This document shows, piece by piece, positions 32,321 through 48,966 of a stretch of DNA of 64,000 bases. The notes under the pieces were generated by a model that saw only the letters and a list, made by a program, of their open reading frames with translations, was not told the DNA's origin and did not search any database. Numbering within the stretch: the stretch's first letter is position 1; each line of letters opens with the position of its first letter. The position numbers and the translations under genes are program-made. This DNA is from Trueperaceae bacterium (GTDB taxonomy: Bacteria; Deinococcota; Deinococci; Deinococcales; Trueperaceae), in assembly GCA_965213705.1 (NCBI GenBank), contig OZ243913.1, positions 2,816,001 to 2,880,000 on the forward strand, in the 5' to 3' direction.

Positions 32321-35224
32321 GTGAAAAAGAGAAAGCAGGAACCGTTCCTTCACAAAAACTCTGAAGGAAAATATGTCTCTGGTGTTGGGCCGGGCGTCGG
32401 ACTTGCTTTGGCAGAAGAATATTTCACTCAAGCTAGACAAGTGATACGTATTGCGACCGCTTACTTTAGTCTAAAGGGGTACAAGTCCGGAAGGAAATTT
32501 TATCCCCAAAGTGTCCAGGTGCGCGTACTGGTGGGACGAAGAGACAGTGTCGAAGTTCAAGCGGCTGTCATTGATGAGATAGAGGAAGAGCTAAAGAGTT
32601 GCGAAACTGACCTTTGGGAAACCGTTTATGAAATTGTCGAGCGTATTAGAGTAGGGCAGTTTATCATCCGTGACGCCCGAAGGATAGACACACCGTTCCA
32701 CTGCAAGTTCTATATCTCTGATGACGAGCTTCTTTGGCATGGTTCAGCAAATTATTCTTGGAATGGCTTGAGTATAAATGCCGAACAAGTTAGCTTTATA
32801 CATGATCCAGCTCAAATTAACGGTTTTATAAATTGGTATGACCAAATCGCCAACGATGCTTTTGACTTACTCAAAGAACTTAAAGAACGCCTAGAAAGAT
32901 GGCTCGAGCTCGCTAAGCCTTTCGACATATACCTTAAAGCACTTTTTATTTTCTACAACTTGCCGAGTTATAGCGTTAGAGGGGATGCCCATTCACCCAC
33001 GTACTTCCAAAAGGGTTTTGTAATCAGCGTTCTCTCCCAACTAGAAAGCTTTGGGGGAGCTATAGGCATAGCCGCAACGGGACTGGGGAAAACTGTCATG
33101 GGTACAGAAATCGCTGGTCAGTTACAACAGCAAGGCAAAATAAAAAGGGTCATCATCATCGCTCCTGGAAGTGTACGTGAGAACTGGCGAAAAGAGTTTG
33201 AAGGTAGAGATATTAATTTTGAATTTTTTAGTCTTGAGATCTCATTTCGAGAGGGCTCTGATAGTTTTCATCATCAAGTTTCGAGACTGGACAGAAAGCT
33301 CGAGGAGGCGGATACCAATACTTTTATTTTGGTTGACGAAGCACACCGCTATAAAAACCAACTTAAGGAGAGCGACGATCCGGATTCAACAAGCCTAGTT
33401 TACGAAAGACTAATGCCGGCTATAAATAGGAGGGCCAAAATTGTACTACTTACAGCCACCGCCTACAGTACAAGCCTAAAAAACCTCAATAGCCTACTCT
33501 ACTTGTTGCCTTGGGTTAACAAAAACGCGTTTGACCTAACGGTCCCCTGGAATACGCGAACCATTGATGATTTTACGCAACTTCCGGTAGTAACAATTTT
33601 GGGACTGCCACATGTTCAGAAAATGGCGGAGGCGAGAGGAGATATTGATGAAGCGGGAAGACCCTTTTTTGAATTTGTAAACGAAAAGCGCTATTTACCT
33701 GAGAGCATCAAATTGTACCCTGAGAACTACACATTGTGTATGGAAAACAGATTGTGCGAAGTTTTTGATAGACAGTGTTTCGACCATACAAGTAAAATGC
33801 CACACCTATTTTTTGATGACGAGACTTTTTCAGACCAGAGAGGTTTGACAGACTCAAGCTACAATACTGCGCTAACAAGCTGGCTGAGTTCCCCATCGGC
33901 TATGCGGGACAGCATAGTAAAAAATCTAGAAAAGCCTGGACGCGTAGGCGAAGAAAAGTTGTTCATGAGTAGTTTGGAGGAAATTTCCAAAGATGGGAGC
34001 GTTACTCAGCTAGGTTTGTGGAGCGAACACGACTTCGACAACTCAATTAGGGACACCGAGCCGGGGAGCGAGACGCCTATGTTGCTTCCCCTAAACAAAC
34101 GTAAGCGTTTACTCACTCCCGCCCTTGAGAGTTTGGAGGAGGTAATAAATAGAATAGAAGCAGATGACAAACTAGAGAAGTTGGAAAATATTATCGATTT
34201 AAACCTGATAATGAACGACTCAAAAATTATTATTTTCGTAAATCGGTACCTTACCGCCCTATATTTAGAGAAAGCTATAAAAGATACCTGCCATCAGGTT
34301 GTTTCCGTGGCTTGTACAGTCGAAGAGAGTGATGGATCTCCGAGGCTAAAATCTAGTGAACAACGTTATGAAGTACTCAGAAATTTTTCGCCCTCATCCC
34401 ACAATTATGTATCAGATAATGAGTACAACATACTCATCTGTACAGATGCTGACGGTATAGGTGTGAACCTACAAGATGCCAGCATTATCGTCAACTATGA
34501 CCCACCTAAGGGCGCAGATGAACTTTTTCAACGGGCGGGACGAGTCCTGCGGATAACAAAGGAACCACGAAGAATCATTCATATCTATACGCTCATACCA
34601 TCCATAGTAAACGAGGATAGTAGCGGTTCGCGCGTAAAAAGGGATGTCTGTCGGGTCTTTGAACGAATACAGAAGCGGCATGACAAATCAAGGCGTGTAC
34701 TTGGATCTGACGTTCTGTCACTTCATCAACTTTCAGAAATTACCCTTGAAAGTGAAGTGGATGTAGACAAGTTAATGCGCGAAGAGAATTTGGAATGGCG
34801 TGGGCCTCCCAGGACTATCGCCGATCATCAATCGGTATTAAGTAAACACTTTAATCATGCCGAGCTACTGCCGGACTGTATTTTTAGTGCTTGTTACCAT
34901 GCTCACAAGAGTCCCAAAGTGTTTGTTCTCCTTCACAATACCGATACTACGGAATACTACAGGATTCTCTTTGACCCTACAACTAAAGAGGTCAAACCGC
35001 TAAGCATTCCGGAAACGTTGAATTTACTAGCGTGCCCCGAAGCAGAAGAACGCGCTCCTATTGATACGAAGTACATAGAGCAGGATGCAAACCAGGCTGC
35101 ACAAATCTGGTGCGAGTCCGAAGACATTAACATCATTCAGGTGAACAAAATTTGCGTACTCTACCTTGCATCAAACAGCAATCGTAATAGTTTCAAGTCT
35201 TTTTTACGCCGAGAACCGTCTTAA
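32321..35224 (+). CDS. PLD-nuclease plus SF2 helicase fusion, low GC
   Basis: HCKFY...GSANYS (PLD HxK motif), Walker A ATGLGKT, DEAH, TAT, and helicase-C GVNLQDA...QRAGRVLR. Confidence 0.85.
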   Translation: MKKRKQEPFLHKNSEGKYVSGVGPGVGLALAEEYFTQARQVIRIATAYFSLKGYKSGRKFYPQSVQVRVLVGRRDSVEVQAAVIDEIEEELKSCETDLWETVYEIVERIRVGQFIIRDARRIDTPFHCKFYISDDELLWHGSANYSWNGLSINAEQVSFIHDPAQINGFINWYDQIANDAFDLLKELKERLERWLELAKPFDIYLKALFIFYNLPSYSVRGDAHSPTYFQKGFVISVLSQLESFGGAIGIAATGLGKTVMGTEIAGQLQQQGKIKRVIIIAPGSVRENWRKEFEGRDINFEFFSLEISFREGSDSFHHQVSRLDRKLEEADTNTFILVDEAHRYKNQLKESDDPDSTSLVYERLMPAINRRAKIVLLTATAYSTSLKNLNSLLYLLPWVNKNAFDLTVPWNTRTIDDFTQLPVVTILGLPHVQKMAEARGDIDEAGRPFFEFVNEKRYLPESIKLYPENYTLCMENRLCEVFDRQCFDHTSKMPHLFFDDETFSDQRGLTDSSYNTALTSWLSSPSAMRDSIVKNLEKPGRVGEEKLFMSSLEEISKDGSVTQLGLWSEHDFDNSIRDTEPGSETPMLLPLNKRKRLLTPALESLEEVINRIEADDKLEKLENIIDLNLIMNDSKIIIFVNRYLTALYLEKAIKDTCHQVVSVACTVEESDGSPRLKSSEQRYEVLRNFSPSSHNYVSDNEYNILICTDADGIGVNLQDASIIVNYDPPKGADELFQRAGRVLRITKEPRRIIHIYTLIPSIVNEDSSGSRVKRDVCRVFERIQKRHDKSRRVLGSDVLSLHQLSEITLESEVDVDKLMREENLEWRGPPRTIADHQSVLSKHFNHAELLPDCIFSACYHAHKSPKVFVLLHNTDTTEYYRILFDPTTKEVKPLSIPETLNLLACPEAEERAPIDTKYIEQDANQAAQIWCESEDINIIQVNKICVLYLASNSNRNSFKSFLRREPS

Positions 35225-40486: not shown

Positions 40487-40699
40487 GGCTAGACTTCATA
40501 AAACGGCTTGATTGATGAGGGCGGTCGCGTGGTGCGGCCGTCCTCGTTTTGTTGTTGGGGCAGTCGGTTCGGGGCCGCGGTTGGACCCCTCCGCCCTTCG
40601 GGCACCTCCCCTTAAAGGAGAGGCGGGAGCGCGAGGTCAAAGGTTATGTGTTTCGACTCGAGAACACAAACCTTATCTATGTGTAAAGTGATTATCCTC

Positions 40700-40728
40700 T
40701 TGACAAAACGTTGTAGGTATACAACAAT
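40700..40728 (+). promoter_or_regulatory. Promoter with palindromic operator for the XRE operon
   Basis: TTGACA at 40700, followed by the inverted repeat GTTGTA-GGTA-TACAAC (40710-40725) in the spacer/-10 region. Confidence 0.65.
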
Positions 40729-40762
40729 GTGTTTTAGAAACGTCAAGAATTGAGGTGCATGT

Positions 40763-41029
40763 GTGCCACCCAACAAACTGACCATCCACAACCGAATCAG
40801 CGTTTTACGCGCCGAGCGCGATTTGTCCCGCAAAGACTTGGCCGACGCGGTGGGGGTGAACTTTCAGACGATTGGCTACCTCGAGCGCGGGGACTACAAC
40901 CCGAGTTTGGAACTCGCTTTCAAACTCAGCGACTATTTCAGCCTACCCATCGAGGTCATCTTTTCGACCCGACCCCTCAAACCCTTAAGTGAAGCTCTTA
41001 TGGAGCTTAGAGAAAAGGAGAAAGTATGA
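40763..41029 (+). CDS. Small XRE-family HTH transcriptional regulator
   Basis: NRISVLRAERDLSRKDLADAVGVNFQTIGYLERGDYNPSLELAFKL. Confidence 0.92.
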   Translation: MPPNKLTIHNRISVLRAERDLSRKDLADAVGVNFQTIGYLERGDYNPSLELAFKLSDYFSLPIEVIFSTRPLKPLSEALMELREKEKV

Positions 41030-41505
41030 AAACAGGTATAGTCAAACGCTCGAGTCGCCGGTTCTACGTGGTTTTAACAGGACTCAGCTACGTCCTTTTG
41101 GTGAGCTTTTGGGCACTTGCAAACTCACTCGCCAACGACTGGTTGATGCTTCCGACTTTACTGGCTGCACTTACGTTCCTCTATAGTTTTTCACGTATCT
41201 TCATCGGGACTCAAGCCTGGAACGTTGCCAACCGCAGCGCTGCCGAAGCCGACGAGCGTCAACGAATCGTGCGCGACAGGGCGCACTTTTGGGCTTACCT
41301 TTACGCAAGTATTTTTGCCCTCCTGAGTCTGACGTACTGGTACTTTGCGGGTGAACTCGGCTGGTGGTTACCGCGCGGGTACGGTGAGCGCACCGCGACC
41401 TTCTGGACGCTTCTTCTCCTCATTCCATCGTTGCCCTCCGCCATCATCGCCTGGCTCGAGCCCGACCCCGTTGAAGACGTTTTTGAAGAAAGGACTTTAG
41501 CATGA
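41026..41505 (+). CDS. Membrane protein, DERQ/WLEPDP paralogue 1
   Basis: About 4 TM helices; ADERQR; LPSAIIAWLEPDP; start overlaps the XRE stop. Confidence 0.8.
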   Translation: MKTGIVKRSSRRFYVVLTGLSYVLLVSFWALANSLANDWLMLPTLLAALTFLYSFSRIFIGTQAWNVANRSAAEADERQRIVRDRAHFWAYLYASIFALLSLTYWYFAGELGWWLPRGYGERTATFWTLLLLIPSLPSAIIAWLEPDPVEDVFEERTLA

Positions 41506-41969
41506 TGGCAAACAGGTCGGTGCGGCGCGTTTTGGTGATTGCTTACTACCTCGTTCTTTTCGCGCTTTATCCGCTCGTACAGGGAGTGTTCTGGGAGACG
41601 GCGCTGTTTTTCGTCCTGCTGTTTGCATCTCCCGCGACGGCGGCGGGAACGGAAATGCTTAAAGCCCTAAACGACCCCGAGGCTAGGGCCGACGAGCGCC
41701 AAAAGGGAATCATCAACGAAACGATGAGAAAGACGTACGTCGTGCTGGCTGTAATGTTGCTCGTCCCCGCGTTCATGCTCGGGTTTACAGACGACCTACC
41801 CACCCGTGTCGGCGAGGCCGTTGACGGCTATTTGAGCTACCTGTTCAGCTTCCGAATCCTCTTCCTGTTGATTTCGACGCTGCCGCCCGCCGTGCTGATG
41901 TGGCTCGAGCCCGACCCAGTTCCCGAAACCGAAGAACCTGTCGAGAACGTGCGGGGAGGGGCACAGTGA
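41502..41969 (+). CDS. Membrane protein, DERQ/WLEPDP paralogue 2
   Basis: ADERQK; LPPAVLMWLEPDP; ATGA overlap. Confidence 0.8.
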   Translation: MMANRSVRRVLVIAYYLVLFALYPLVQGVFWETALFFVLLFASPATAAGTEMLKALNDPEARADERQKGIINETMRKTYVVLAVMLLVPAFMLGFTDDLPTRVGEAVDGYLSYLFSFRILFLLISTLPPAVLMWLEPDPVPETEEPVENVRGGAQ

Positions 41970-42424
41970 CCGCACTTGCCAACCGCCCGTCACGCCGGAC
42001 GCTGGTCGTTGTCTACTACGCCCTCTTTCTTTTCTACCCTTTTTTCGACGCAGTGCTCGGGTTTGCAGCTTTCGTACTCTTTTTATTCGTTTCGCCGTTC
42101 GTCCTCAAGCTCAGCAGTTTGGTGAGGGCTTACTACAACGACGACCCCGACGAGCGAGAAGTAGGGCTCATCAACCAGGCGCACCGCCTCGCTTACGGCG
42201 TCCTCGTCCCGACGGTTGTGGTCGTGATGCTCGTCAACCGCTACGGGGGTGAACCGGGTCCGGGGCTGCAAGCGCTGAGCCCCTACCTCGTTTTCGACCA
42301 CCTGCTGACGCTGCTCCCGTTCACAATCCTCGCCCTGACGCTGCCCGCCGCCGTGATGCTGTGGCTCGAGCCCGGCCCCGTTGAAGAAGATGCCTCTTCA
42401 GAACACACAAGGAGACTCACCTGA
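41966..42424 (+). CDS. Membrane protein, DERE/WLEPGP paralogue 3
   Basis: PDEREV; LPAAVMLWLEPGP; GTG start after GGAGG, overlapping the previous stop. Confidence 0.8.
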   Translation: MTALANRPSRRTLVVVYYALFLFYPFFDAVLGFAAFVLFLFVSPFVLKLSSLVRAYYNDDPDEREVGLINQAHRLAYGVLVPTVVVVMLVNRYGGEPGPGLQALSPYLVFDHLLTLLPFTILALTLPAAVMLWLEPGPVEEDASSEHTRRLT

Positions 42425-42903
42425 TGACTCGGTTCAACGCACCCTTAAAGCAGAGCACTCGGCGCTTACTGAGTATTGTCGCAACTGTCATTTTTCTAAC
42501 GAGCTTCGTTGCGGCCTTTTTTGGAGAGACGTTTGTTATTCCGAGCCTTCTCTTGCTTGTGCCCTATCTTTTAATCGTCGTTCGGCTCAACAAATCGACT
42601 TCGAACGTAGTCAGTGTGAGGAACAATAATCTGGACGAACGCCAAAAAGAACTGCGCGGTGAGGCGTACCGTATGACTTACGCTGTGTTCGTTTGGTACG
42701 CCTTTTTTATGGTCGTAGTGAGTGGTCTCGGGCTGGGCCGCGTCACTCTGACCTATGGTGCAGGTGAGACACCTATCGTACATCTCCTTTTGTTGATAAA
42801 CATGTTTTTTATAACTACTCTGCCAATTTTTTACGTTGCCTGGCTCGAGCCCGACCCGCTCCCCGACGACGAGCCGTCTTTACAGCCAAACGCGGCCGCG
42901 TAA
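42424..42903 (+). CDS. Membrane protein, DERQ/WLEPDP paralogue 4
   Basis: LDERQK; LPIFYVAWLEPDP; TGATG overlap and AAGGAG RBS. Confidence 0.8.
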   Translation: MTRFNAPLKQSTRRLLSIVATVIFLTSFVAAFFGETFVIPSLLLLVPYLLIVVRLNKSTSNVVSVRNNNLDERQKELRGEAYRMTYAVFVWYAFFMVVVSGLGLGRVTLTYGAGETPIVHLLLLINMFFITTLPIFYVAWLEPDPLPDDEPSLQPNAAA

Positions 42904-42977
42904 TTCGACCAAAGGTAAGAAGACACGCCCTACAGTTGCGAACTATCCTAGTGCCTAGACTTGCTCGAGGAGGAGAC

Positions 42978-44720
42978 ATGGTTACACGCTTTGTACTGCT
43001 GACGGCACTTTCGCTCGGCGCGGCGTTCGCGCAAGACGCGTTCAACGGCGACTGGGAAGGCGTCGTCGGGCCGGACAGTTTGAACTTGAGCGTCATCGTC
43101 CATTTCGAGGCGGGTCAGGACGGCCTGACGGGCACCGCCGACATCCCCGCACAAAGCGCTCGAGGTTTGCCTCTGGAGATCTTAGAAACTACGGACGACG
43201 CGGTCGTGTTCACCATCGCCGAGACGCCTGGAGAGCCGACCTTCGAAGGCGAGTTGACCGACGACGACCTCATCACGGGCACGTTTACCCAAGGCGGACA
43301 GAGTTTGCCGTTTCGGCTCGAGCGTCGCGTGGACGTGCCGGAGGCCCCGCCTGTGGTCGAAGCGTTCTTGGGCTCGTGGCAGGGCGTCATCGGCCCGGAC
43401 TCGCTAGACCTGATGGTCGGCGTGACGTTTGAAGAGGTGGACGGTGCTTTTGTCGGGCGCATCACTATCCCCACACAAAGTTTCGAAGGGCTGTTGGGCG
43501 TGCGGGCGGCGACCGAGCAAACGATTAACTTCGTCATCGAGGGTGTGCCCGGCAACCCGACCTTCGAGGCGACGCTGGCCGAAGACCAGTTGCAAGGAAC
43601 GTTCACCCAGAGTGGGGCGTCCTACCCGTTTAGCCTGACGCGCAGCGACGCGCCCTTGGCCGTGTCCATCAGCCGTCCGCAAGACCCGCAGCCGCCGTTC
43701 CCGTACCGTGAAGAGGAGGTGACGTATTCAAACGGCGACGTTACCCTCGCGGGGACGCTTACTCTGCCCGAGGGTGACGGGCCGTTTCCGGCCATGCTGA
43801 TGATTACCGGCAGCGGCGCGCAAAACCGCGACGAGGAACTCGCCGGGCACCGGCCTTTTCTGGTCATCGCCGACGCGGTCACCCGCGCGGGCGTGGCGGT
43901 GCTGCGCGTGGACGACCGCGGCGTGGGCGGCTCGAGCGGCGACTTGTCGCAGGCGACCTACGACGACTTGGTAGGCGACGTCGAAGCGGGCGTGGCCTTT
44001 CTGAAAGCGCGCCCTGAGGTCGACGCGAACCGCGTCGGGCTGTTCGGCCACAGCGAGGGCGGTTACTTAGCGCCGCTCGCCGCCACGCGGGCGGACGTTG
44101 CCTTTGTGATCATGATGGCCGGGCCGAGCGTGGACGGGGAACGGGTGCTCGAGCTGCAAAACCGCCTTCTTCTCGAACTCGCGGACGCGCCCCAGACGGA
44201 CGTCGAGGCGCAGGTCCGCTTTCTGCGCACGTTGAAAGAGGTGCTCGAGCGCTCCATCTACGACGAATCCGCCTACGACGAAGCGGCCGCCCTGGTCGAG
44301 ACCCGCGTGGCCGAGCAGTTCGCGAGCCTGCCCGAAGACGAGCGCCCCGACGAGGCCACCCAAGCGCAGGCCGTCATCGCGCAACAAGAGAACATCGTCA
44401 GTCCTTACTTCCGCAGTTTTTTTCTGTACGACCCCCAGCCCGCGCTGCGGCAACTTGACAAGCCGGTGCTGGCCTTTTACGGCAACCTGGACGTGCAGGT
44501 GCCGCCCGTGCAAAGCGTGGGGCCGCTCCGCGCCGCGCTGCGCTCGGCGGGCAACGACGACGTGACGATTCAGGTCTTCGACGGTCTCAACCACCTCATG
44601 CAGCCGGCCGTTCGAGGCGGCCTCGAAGAGTACAGCCAAATCGAAACGACCGTCGCGCCCGAGGTGCTGAGCCTTATCACCGAGTGGCTGACGGAGCGGG
44701 TCGTCTCCAACGCGCCTTAA
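42978..44720 (+). CDS. Secreted alpha/beta hydrolase with two repeated N-terminal beta domains
   Basis: Signal peptide (AFA-QD), GSGAQNRDE, DDRGVGGS, nucleophile GHSEGG, DVQVP and LNHLMQ; two ~95-aa N-terminal repeats. Confidence 0.88.
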   Translation: MVTRFVLLTALSLGAAFAQDAFNGDWEGVVGPDSLNLSVIVHFEAGQDGLTGTADIPAQSARGLPLEILETTDDAVVFTIAETPGEPTFEGELTDDDLITGTFTQGGQSLPFRLERRVDVPEAPPVVEAFLGSWQGVIGPDSLDLMVGVTFEEVDGAFVGRITIPTQSFEGLLGVRAATEQTINFVIEGVPGNPTFEATLAEDQLQGTFTQSGASYPFSLTRSDAPLAVSISRPQDPQPPFPYREEEVTYSNGDVTLAGTLTLPEGDGPFPAMLMITGSGAQNRDEELAGHRPFLVIADAVTRAGVAVLRVDDRGVGGSSGDLSQATYDDLVGDVEAGVAFLKARPEVDANRVGLFGHSEGGYLAPLAATRADVAFVIMMAGPSVDGERVLELQNRLLLELADAPQTDVEAQVRFLRTLKEVLERSIYDESAYDEAAALVETRVAEQFASLPEDERPDEATQAQAVIAQQENIVSPYFRSFFLYDPQPALRQLDKPVLAFYGNLDVQVPPVQSVGPLRAALRSAGNDDVTIQVFDGLNHLMQPAVRGGLEEYSQIETTVAPEVLSLITEWLTERVVSNAP

Positions 44721-44723
44721 GTC

Positions 44724-44754
44724 TGGGACGTGAATTGGACGGCTTCACGTCCCA
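44724..44754. terminator. Hairpin between convergent genes
   Basis: TGGGACGTGAA...TTCACGTCCCA 11-bp stem between the hydrolase and leuS stops. Confidence 0.6.
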
Positions 44755-47493: not shown

Positions 47494-48597
47494 TTACTCA
47501 GCCTCTTCGGCATATTCGTCCAAAACACTATCCGAAAGGTGTGAGAGATGTTTTTCTTGCGCCAACTCCTGTACACTTTCGTAGGAGAGATAGGTACATT
47601 TTTCTGACAAAGGCCCTCTCTCCAGAAGTGTAAAAACCGGACGGCGCAACTCCTGAAATACTTTTTCGCGTCTTGCGGAGGGGGCAACGATATTGAGCTT
47701 TATGTCCATGTTGGGTTGAAGAGCAAGCAAATCAGCCATGCGAAGGATGCCGGAATAAATAGAAGTTGTGTGCTCTACCTCAAAAGCTCTAACGATTGCG
47801 CGCCCACGGAGCCATAAAACGTCAATCTGCTCTATTGTTTTTAGTGTAGTATCGTCGTAGTTGAGGGGTAGGTAGTCAATTACGGGTTGGTTGTCTCCCT
47901 GCCACTCCTTTAAGACAGACGCTCTATCGTTTCTTGGAAGCCATATTTTCATGCCCATGTCGGCACCGATTTTTGCAATAAGAGCTTGTACCTTTGTAGA
48001 TTCCCGAACTTCATCACGCGGTTTTGTTGATGGGTGACTTACCTCATCATCTTCTTCTGGAATGGAGACGGTAACTACTTTATCGGCTGCTCGAACTTTA
48101 TGCGTCGTTAGTTTGGCATACTCCTTTGCGTCTAGCGGGTATTTATATCCATTTTTGGCTTGGGCAATTATCATTTTTTCGAGAAATTTTCCGTCTACGT
48201 TGTCAATACGATTCAAACTGCTTCTAAGCTTTCCTGTCCAGCTAGACGTATTTTTTTCGTGCTCCTTAGTAAACGAAAGGGTGCTCCACACTGAATCTTC
48301 ATGAATTGGTATTGACTTTTCCTTCTCGAGCCAAGCTAAAGGTTCAACATTGAAGCGAACCACAAAAGGGTCATCCTCTTCATAAAATATCGGAGCACTA
48401 TCTACAAAGGGAGAGCTTTGAACTTCCAGAAGCCCTACCCAGCGCGACAGCTTAGTCATATAACAAATCAACCTGTCACCAGGTTTTACTCGTTCTGCAG
48501 AAGCTTCTTGTGTCTTTCGAAATCCCGAGATACTACGGTCCGAGCTGGAAAAAGCTTGATACGTTTCTGGAGAAAATAAGTTTAGATAGTAGGCCAT
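47494..48597 (-). CDS. EVE-domain plus PD-(D/E)XK-like endonuclease, low GC
   Basis: N-terminus with an EVE/PUA-like pattern (VKPGDRLICYMTKLSRWVGLLEV); C-terminus IDVLWL...AFEVEHTTSIYSGILRMADL. Confidence 0.72.
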   Translation of the reverse strand: MAYYLNLFSPETYQAFSSSDRSISGFRKTQEASAERVKPGDRLICYMTKLSRWVGLLEVQSSPFVDSAPIFYEEDDPFVVRFNVEPLAWLEKEKSIPIHEDSVWSTLSFTKEHEKNTSSWTGKLRSSLNRIDNVDGKFLEKMIIAQAKNGYKYPLDAKEYAKLTTHKVRAADKVVTVSIPEEDDEVSHPSTKPRDEVRESTKVQALIAKIGADMGMKIWLPRNDRASVLKEWQGDNQPVIDYLPLNYDDTTLKTIEQIDVLWLRGRAIVRAFEVEHTTSIYSGILRMADLLALQPNMDIKLNIVAPSARREKVFQELRRPVFTLLERGPLSEKCTYLSYESVQELAQEKHLSHLSDSVLDEYAEEAE

Positions 48598-48708
48598 TTG
48601 GTGAGACTCATTTTAACCTGCCTCGCATACAAGATGCTCAAGAGCCCCCTCACCTTCCAGCTCTCGCGCCTCAAAACCCACCCTACCCGTGCTAAACTGT
48701 ATTCAACA

Positions 48709-48966
48709 ATGACCAAACAGCAAACCATCGAACGCATCACCGACTACCTACCTCACCTTGACGAGGACGTTTTGCAAAGTGTCCTGACGCTGCTCGAACG
48801 GGTGCAGCCCCACCTCGACGCGTGGGACCGTCAGATGCTGGCGGACGCCGAGGCGGGACGGCTCGACGGTCTTATTGACCAGGCTTTGACGAATCACCAG
48901 GCTGGGGACTCGAATGACTTGTTTGAAGGGCTTAAATCAAGGTCGGAAGCTGAACCTGCCAGTTAA
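48709..48966 (+). CDS. Small antitoxin-like protein (orphan)
   Basis: AWDRQMLADAEAGRLDGLIDQAL resembles antitoxins usually paired with RelE/ParE-type toxins; no toxin follows. Confidence 0.55.
   Translation: MTKQQTIERITDYLPHLDEDVLQSVLTLLERVQPHLDAWDRQMLADAEAGRLDGLIDQALTNHQAGDSNDLFEGLKSRSEAEPAS

Follow-up and report, generated by a model that had tools for sequence, protein, structure and literature searches.

The 64,000-nucleotide (nt) stretch analysed here (positions 2,816,001 to 2,880,000 of contig OZ243913.1 of a Trueperaceae bacterium; hereafter the window, in which all positions are counted) contains an operon composed of a promoter with a palindrome, a gene coding for an 88-amino-acid (aa) XRE regulator, four tandem genes coding for membrane proteins (M1-M4) and, 74 nt behind M4, a gene coding for a 580-aa hydrolase. 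By analogy with the AyrR/AyrA system, this is probably, with a confidence slightly above even, an autoregulated sensing operon in which a membrane sensor would release an autorepressor. Bound to the palindrome, the XRE dimer would repress the promoter of its own gene, and each membrane protein would be an interchangeable sensor that docks the repressor via a conserved RR/DER/WLEPDP face; a membrane-active peptide or other envelope stress would make the sensor pull the repressor off the DNA, leading to the synthesis of more sensors and of the exported hydrolase; the latter would cleave the molecule that caused the stress. Several sensors acting on one repressor would constitute an OR gate. Repression, the direction of the switch, the nature of the signal and the role of the hydrolase are all extrapolated here from characterized systems.

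A previous interpretation (the sequence-only reading) had described an XRE-led operon with a palindromic operator, four coupled membrane paralogues of about 155 aa and an exported hydrolase, and all of these elements are present. The XRE/M1, M1/M2, M2/M3 and M3/M4 junctions overlap as ATGA, ATGA, GTGA and TGATG, respectively. The sensor or immunity role that had been proposed is in line with the analogy to AyrA, CylR1 and LtnI.

The XRE regulator, its operator and comparable systems

The regulator is a stand-alone HTH_3 domain (48.8 bits) homologous to CylR2 (E 2e-10), with a conserved C-terminal extension (FSxxPxxPLS) behind the CylR2-like core, and its identity ranges from 49 to 94% over 48 rows. 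The closest solved XRE is PDB entry 9k3w_A (E 1.6e-14), labelled as PbsX family; no paper naming this entry was found in our literature search (most subscription papers lie outside it, here and below). In the promoter, the palindrome GTTGTA-N4-TACAAC (40710-40725) is flanked by TTGACA, at 40700, on one side and by the -10 hexamer on the other. The family consensus of this operator is TGTTGTA-N4-TACAACA, and a pattern search locates it at a constant distance from the -35 box in 13 of 14 loci, the 14th being recognizable by eye. In a larger set of 46 loci, 30 contain the strict pattern and six more match 12-13 of its 14 positions; the remaining loci mostly contain a TGTAGTA variant, and a few have no operator. 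An operator matrix, trained on a set that included the window's own site, identified a single strong site in the whole genome (26.9 bits, the runner-up reaching 14.8) and no second strong operator, and because there is only one, XRE appears to control this operon and nothing else. Within the same subfamily, a Blastomonas XRE is also preceded by the operator (12 of 14 positions), which is absent before the more distant XREs checked (7-10 of 14). By analogy, we infer that the XRE represses its own promoter via this palindrome. A strict correspondence between His or Asn in the recognition helix and operator base 4 was discarded: the four His-type loci fit it and the Asn-type Chloroflexota loci break it.

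In S. aureus, AyrR binds a palindrome at its own promoter and represses its own operon, according to the relevant passages of PMC4542188. AyrA contains a D-E-x-E loop and, in the parts of PMC5727409 that deal with it, deletion of ayrA is reported to block induction, so that the operon stays repressed, and a change at the membrane-cytoplasm boundary to make expression constitutive; ayrA homologues are described there as lying nearly always behind ayrR homologues, with the transporter often absent. The window operon shares with AyrR-AyrA(-AyrBC) the small XRE autorepressor, the palindrome at its own promoter, a membrane gene that overlaps the regulator gene and codes for a conserved D-E loop, and a constant repressor-partner pair accompanied by variable output genes. 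AyrA, however, is a single protein of the DUF3169 family, with six helices and the motif D-E(a/g)E, whereas one to five four-helix proteins with DER/RR/WLEPDP are found here, and the AyrBC output is an ABC transporter instead of an exported hydrolase or nothing.

The CylR2-CylR1 pair of E. faecalis has a homologous XRE, a partner with KKDER followed by two hydrophobic helices, and peptide-specific signalling without a phosphorelay. CylR1, an unannotated 94-aa open reading frame (ORF) next to the annotated cylR2 gene with KKDER at the start of its last two helices, is single, lacks RR and WLEPDP and is encoded upstream of cylR2, and the pair governs a divergent toxin operon. A diverse CylR1 profile could not be built, only near-identical relatives being present in the collections. 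The pertinent sections of PMC3709268 and bioRxiv 10.1101/2024.08.13.607848 describe CylR1/CylR2 as peptide-specific and their mechanism as unexplained, and in such passages of published work the relay from the membrane signal of CylR1 and AyrA to the repressor is stated as unexplained. With the sign of the switch reversed, the membrane proteins could be co-repressors that keep the XRE on the operator at rest and release it upon a signal, as in the models outlined in the review PMC3709268, where CylR2 is bound by CylR1 until the latter changes and lets it go, and translational coupling would provide synthesis at about 1:1; this reverse sign seems improbable to us, given that the ayrA deletion yields a repressed, non-inducible operon (PMC5727409, same passages) and that all four different partners would need to release simultaneously.

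Plasmid pMRC01 of L. lactis contains genes that we take to be ltnR, ltnI and ltnFE (its record reads helix-turn-helix regulator and hypothetical protein), with an XRE gene followed by an overlapping DER membrane gene. LtnI has KKDER at the start of its last two helices, and homologues 37-54% identical to it are annotated as DUF2178. In contrast to the arrays, LtnI is a single, 116-aa immunity protein beside a lantibiotic cluster; no two-peptide lantibiotic cluster genes flank the window operon. Pairs of HTH_3 with DUF2178, DUF6773, DUF6442 or DUF3796 have the same two-gene layout in bacteria and archaea but are usually single. In B. subtilis, the membrane protein SdpI sequesters the autorepressor SdpR upon toxin peptide and acts as both shield and sensor; this is an analogy only, as both the repressor and the membrane families differ from those of the array. 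Among 12 plasmid XRE matches (two of them chosen for their DUF labels), the neighbour contains DER in eight and DEM or DEL in two, is a remnant in one and is missing in one; none of the 47 remaining small membrane ORFs in this genome contains DER. The partner profile is significant for Streptomyces, Sphingomonas, Blastomonas and Acaryochloris partners (27-58 bits). By the tests run, the operon is outside AyrRA, CylR1R2, LtnRI and DUF2178.

The membrane partners and their distribution

The motifs (K/N)xxxRR, DER(Q/E)...Y and LP...WLEP(D/G)P plus an acidic tail are common to the four proteins, whose bodies are 25-34% identical pairwise (M1 is 29, 25 and 26% identical to the other three copies); they are homologous but divergent paralogues, as had been read. 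A profile built from them found only M1-M4 in the whole 4.25-Mb genome at E<=1. Partner identity across 106 rows is 17-60%, and only R11, R12, D76, E77, R78, L136, P137, W143 and P146 are conserved in at least 90% of them, so that about nine retained residues name a candidate docking surface. The AlphaFold model of M1 (predicted local distance difference test, pLDDT, 85; predicted template modelling score, pTM, 0.74) contains four helices (8-35, 38-64, 77-110 and 119-144) and places RR, DER and WLEPDP on one side, which from the basic N-terminus and basic central loop we infer to be cytoplasmic (positive-inside rule), in agreement with the cytoplasmic motif set predicted earlier. Conservation over the 106 rows is 0.88 for WLEPDP, 0.46 for the DER loop, 0.23-0.40 for the helices and 0.09 and 0.18 for the outer loops. 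As the outer loops of the model are very short and the least conserved parts, the ligand site would be mostly inside the membrane, contrary to the earlier idea of recognition through these loops.

Assignment by profile and fold, which the sequence-only reading had suggested as a check, gave no Pfam or NCBIfam family for M1-M4 (including no transporter match) and no Foldseek match of the M1 model in PDB at E<=0.001. For Pfam DUF2178 (PF09946), M1-M4 have no match at the gathering cut-off of 22.8 bits, the best family member reaching 21 bits; six of the 106 members match it at E<=0.05, and the weak matches to DUF2178, DUF6773 and DUF6442 (6, 6 and 5 of 106 members) are all below the curated cut-offs. 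Precomputed PF09946 labels on close homologues were set aside, as they were not reproduced by a rerun. On the other hand, an Atlas cluster named DUF2178 matches at 0.92, an annotated archaeal DUF2178 protein scores 14.4 bits on the partner profile against 10.4 for the best control, and the DUF2178 layout is present, with DER ahead of two membrane helices and the gene coupled to a small XRE. M1-M4 are thus DUF2178-like by sequence without being DUF2178 members; the kinship suggested earlier stands for motif, layout and weak matches and fails at the Pfam cut-off. No paper naming DUF2178 was found.

The family is present in 14 of 61 relatives with a first profile and, with a second one, in 34 of 128 family genomes, of which about six are weak matches near 1e-4. 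Over 46 non-redundant loci plus the window, the copy numbers are five in one locus, four in two, three in three, two in 11 and one in 30. The XRE gene adjoins a partner gene in 45 of the 46 loci (the exception is G089), counting as adjacent one locus (G147) with a gap of about 690 nt. Copy number and order vary among relatives, as had been anticipated, with one to five copies and changing sets, and therefore the proteins are not fixed subunits of a transporter. Such a role, in a transporter or another membrane complex, would be suggested by four hydrophobic proteins tightly coupled in translation; it deserves next to no credence, as single-copy loci already contradict it and neither a transporter family nor a PDB fold was matched in the scans above. 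Both findings that the sequence-only reading had named as fatal to it, fixed transporter subunits and lack of homology by profile, failed to appear.

In Chloroflexota and similar loci (L054, L056, L057, L071-L079) the order is reversed, the membrane gene being followed by the XRE gene; there the operator precedes the membrane gene, and the same WLEP box is present in the three loci read at DNA level. At another locus (G148:C90:9705-10169, L084) the sole membrane gene is split over three frames, with XRE and operator intact, and a plasmid of Deinococcus sp. QL22 (L059:3495-3996) contains an XRE gene, a weak operator and only a C-terminal partner remnant.

Mixed arrays, probable exchange at the WLEP box and rival readings

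A fourfold duplication in place is not supported by a quick tree, in which each of M1-M4 groups more closely with a copy from another genome than with its array neighbours. A single supported clade contains the M2 and M3 types, and the M1 grouping has a support of 84; 31 of the 68 inner branches are open, and only supported terminal groups were used. At a 45% identity cut, the 39 genes of 17 Trueperaceae-group arrays fall into 27 types (leaving out two genes without clear motif and other lineages), and the same type is never found twice within an array (0 of 17). At the DNA level, the same-genus genome G001 is unlike the window up to the WLEP box of M2 and highly similar from there through M3; a second switch occurs at the next WLEP box, after which G001 continues as the window's M4 tail and hydrolase.

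Among 704 between-genome pairs, the identity of the tails is 0.83 when body and next gene are both the same (n=4), 0.69 with a different body and the same next gene (n=11), 0.56 with the same body and a different next gene (n=10) and 0.53 when neither is the same (n=679). When six pairs with the same body were chosen, their identity without gaps was 0.90 ahead of the box and dropped to 0.48, 0.31 and 0.32 behind it, and in seven chosen same-next pairs, three of which are unclear without gaps, it rises from about 0.4 to 0.67, 0.65 and 0.59, against a background of 0.52, 0.27 and 0.27. The Leu-Glu codons of the WLEP box are CTCGAG in 36 of 36 boxes, which include kin and are not independent, compared with 44% of Leu-Glu pairs genome-wide, 49% of those in the flanks and 62% of those preceded by Trp; DER and LP, equally invariant at the protein level, use mixed codons. 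These switches of identity likely reflect recombination at the sequence coding for the WLEP box, and the exchanged unit would comprise the tail of the preceding gene, the ribosome site and the body of the next one. A second crossover zone is probably located in the RRxxVVxYY start common to the M2 and M3 types (third copy of G073). The exchange may result either from RecA-type recombination of the ordinary kind, using a short sequence in common, or from a dedicated process; no recombinase was noticed beside the arrays in the mapped loci. Two database proteins, P0005 (83% identical to M2) and P0008 (83% to M4), have M1-like tails, which suggests that other array orders exist. Joints near WLEP boxes in metagenome contigs were set aside as evidence, as they may stem from other organisms.

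A bolder proposal, which we advance tentatively and consider more doubtful than the sensing operon itself, is that the arrays would form a plug-in sensor library, in which one repressor serves an open pool of dozens of sensors, differing in specificity, that are gained, lost and reordered by recombination at GGCTCGAGCC within the codons of the docking motif, as in an integron with no integrase, the DER face being the common docking surface of a superfamily including AyrA, CylR1 and LtnI. If so, this surface would explain how AyrA, CylR1 and LtnI relay their signals. The arrays constitute a natural experiment, with at least 27 partner types, mostly less than 45% alike, facing one nearly unchanged repressor. 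If the copies differ in specificity, they would represent a compact sensor for multiple inputs that needs no phosphorelay and contains its own exchange point, which would be useful for biosensor design, and would provide a function for several widespread DUF families. A multi-partner array with exchange at a coding palindrome was not found in print in our search (supplements such as Fig. S2 of PMC5727409 also lie outside it).

Direct contact between the repressor and a partner was predicted for two XRE chains and M1, the only copy modelled with XRE, with a score of 0.53 against 0.01 for the best of three controls; the runs agree in at least 79% of contacts and partner pLDDT is at least 76. Of 157 solved complexes, 116 attain the mark used, as do two of 215 mismatches, but it was attained at scores of 0.60 or lower by just 18 of 157 solved complexes and both mismatches, and this job is unlike the calibration set. 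We count the score as modest support for direct binding of XRE to M1, because the contact was plausible beforehand from gene coupling and no like complex was found.

Several points weigh against the sensing reading or the exchange. The score of 0.53 falls in a range that the tool rates more often wrong than right unless the guess is likely beforehand. The comparison with AyrR/AyrA is by description, not by sequence, and DUF3169 is weak in three of 106 members, its matches in the five genomes scanned lying outside the arrays. CylR1 is marginal on the partner profile (11.2 bits against 10.4 for the best control), and the homology of LtnI, from a profile of seven rows, does not reach significance (hhalign probability 1.1% with E 0.047 over 26 columns that surround DER; 0.3% in a second comparison, and 5 bits on the partner profile). 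LtnI is, moreover, known as an immunity protein and not as a sensor. No exported hydrolase is present behind 37 of 47 loci, including the five-copy array, and because this genome has no second operator either, the membrane proteins may be the only output in most genomes. As for the exchange, the overall correlations of tail identity over the 704 pairs are weak (rho 0.06 and, with next-gene identity, 0.09), and five of the 11 pairs with different body and same next gene have a tail identity of just 0.50-0.61. CTCGAG is over-represented genome-wide (8868 copies, 6.35-fold over base composition and 1.47-fold over a 4th-order model); since there is this excess and the boxes include kin, codon bias accounts for part of the CTCGAG fixation. 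The excess resembles a highly iterated palindrome.

This codon bias is also the basis for a neutral turnover, in which one copy would be enough and additional ones would be gained and lost as a codon-biased motif recombines by chance. Single copies in 30 of 47 loci and the broken copy of one relative (G148) agree with it; we find it very improbable, as M1-M4 are all intact with their motifs retained, and chance duplication would leave near-identical pairs instead of 27 types among 39 genes with no repeat within an array.

The main alternative, possible though rather unlikely, is that the membrane proteins are the output, an LtnI-like immunity bank under simple autorepression, each protein acting against a different membrane-active peptide. 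LtnI, which is named as an immunity protein in the passage of PMC3857288 that mentions it, has DER and is coupled behind an XRE gene, most loci have no other output gene, and the absence of repeated types within an array would be expected if breadth of protection were selected. However, an immunity protein need not adjoin one repressor, yet this is the case in 45 of 46 loci; the conserved positions are on the side predicted to be cytoplasmic, contact with XRE is weakly favoured by the complex prediction, and in 13 mapped loci we noticed no bacteriocin genes next to the arrays. In such a bank the conserved face would serve folding or oligomer formation. Sensor and immunity roles are not exclusive and could be combined, presumably as in SdpI/SdpR.

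Hydrolases, genomic setting and coordinates

The hydrolase has a signal-peptide-like start, two repeats of about 100 aa (48% identical, 43041-43646), for which Atlas gives no family, and an EstD/S9-like catalytic domain with GHSEG around Ser359; from motifs, Asp505 and His539 would likely complete the triad. The sequence-only reading had considered it as the detoxifying output, a view that does not extend to the family: among the 47 loci, two are followed by the window type and 10 by an exported hydrolase of one of four kinds, and none is behind the five-copy array. The hydrolase is a passenger, not a regular output. In G004, a like N-terminal repeat precedes, in the same protein, a domain resembling class A beta-lactamases that has SxxK and SDN, and G073 contains a gene like that of G004, judged without a catalytic-domain scan; G040, G044 and G052 have TAP-like hydrolases (L046 has a like gene, unscanned), and G048 and G056 an exported protein of unassigned kind followed by an S41 peptidase. 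The four kinds of exported hydrolase hint at a peptide or amide signal. The same repeat of about 100 aa heads an alpha/beta hydrolase and a class A beta-lactamase-like protein (L030:7572-9152 and L081:3030-4589), and because of this, catalytic domains seem to have been swapped behind a shared exported module.

The features are listed in the following table; for M3, the ORF lister gives a longer version from 41900, and the inverted repeat at 44724-44754 was not flagged by the hairpin scan, as it has no T run.

Features of the operon and its borders (window positions)
Feature	Position	Strand	Remark
Terminator-like hairpin, end of upstream RNase J-like gene	40514..40548	+	hairpin scan
Sigma-70-type promoter, TTGACA-17-AACAAT	40700..40728	+	spacing equal in relatives
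Palindromic operator, between -35 and -10, overlaps -10	40709..40726	.	putative XRE binding site
XRE repressor, HTH_3, CylR2-like, GTG start, 88 aa	40763..41029	+	
M1, 159-aa four-helix membrane protein, RR / DER / LP..WLEPDP	41026..41505	+	
WLEP box 1, TGGCTCGAGCCCGAC, contains palindrome GGCTCGAGCC	41452..41466	+	
M2, 155 aa	41502..41969	+	
WLEP box 2, start of identity with G001	41901..41915	+	
M3, 152 aa, GTG start, body 92% identical to second copy of G001	41966..42424	+	
WLEP box 3, end of identity with G001	42362..42376	+	
M4, 159 aa	42424..42903	+	
WLEP box 4, tail behind box 97% identical to tail of G001 M3-type gene	42841..42855	+	
Exported alpha/beta hydrolase, 580 aa	42978..44720	+	export predicted from motifs
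11-bp perfect inverted repeat, hydrolase/leuS-like interval, possible two-way terminator	44724..44754	.	by eye

The upstream neighbour is presumably an RNase J-like gene and the convergent downstream one a gene that we take to be leuS-like; both flanks are common to the window and G001, whereas in G004, G035 and G024 the operon is at a different site, behind a truB-like gene. The titled loci nearest to the window operon are from Trueperaceae. Metagenome contigs that may derive from the source sample are identical to the stretch piece by piece, and no single contig spans all of it. In G001 (L029:9535-9840), a gene coding for a 102-aa GIY-YIG nuclease lies between the RNase J-like gene and the XRE gene, and the window does not have it. 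Upstream of the window promoter there is a short inverted repeat (40584-40625; CCCTCCGCCC...GGGC; CCTCCCCTTAAAGGAGAGG), where several metagenome contigs begin or diverge, probably a dispersed repeat element. Elsewhere in the window, a gene coding for 967 aa, in which a PLD-like start and motifs of helicases were recognized (32321-35224, by eye), is possibly a restriction or defence gene, and an AT-rich gene for a 367-aa EVE-like protein is followed by a short antitoxin-like ORF (47494-48966, by eye).

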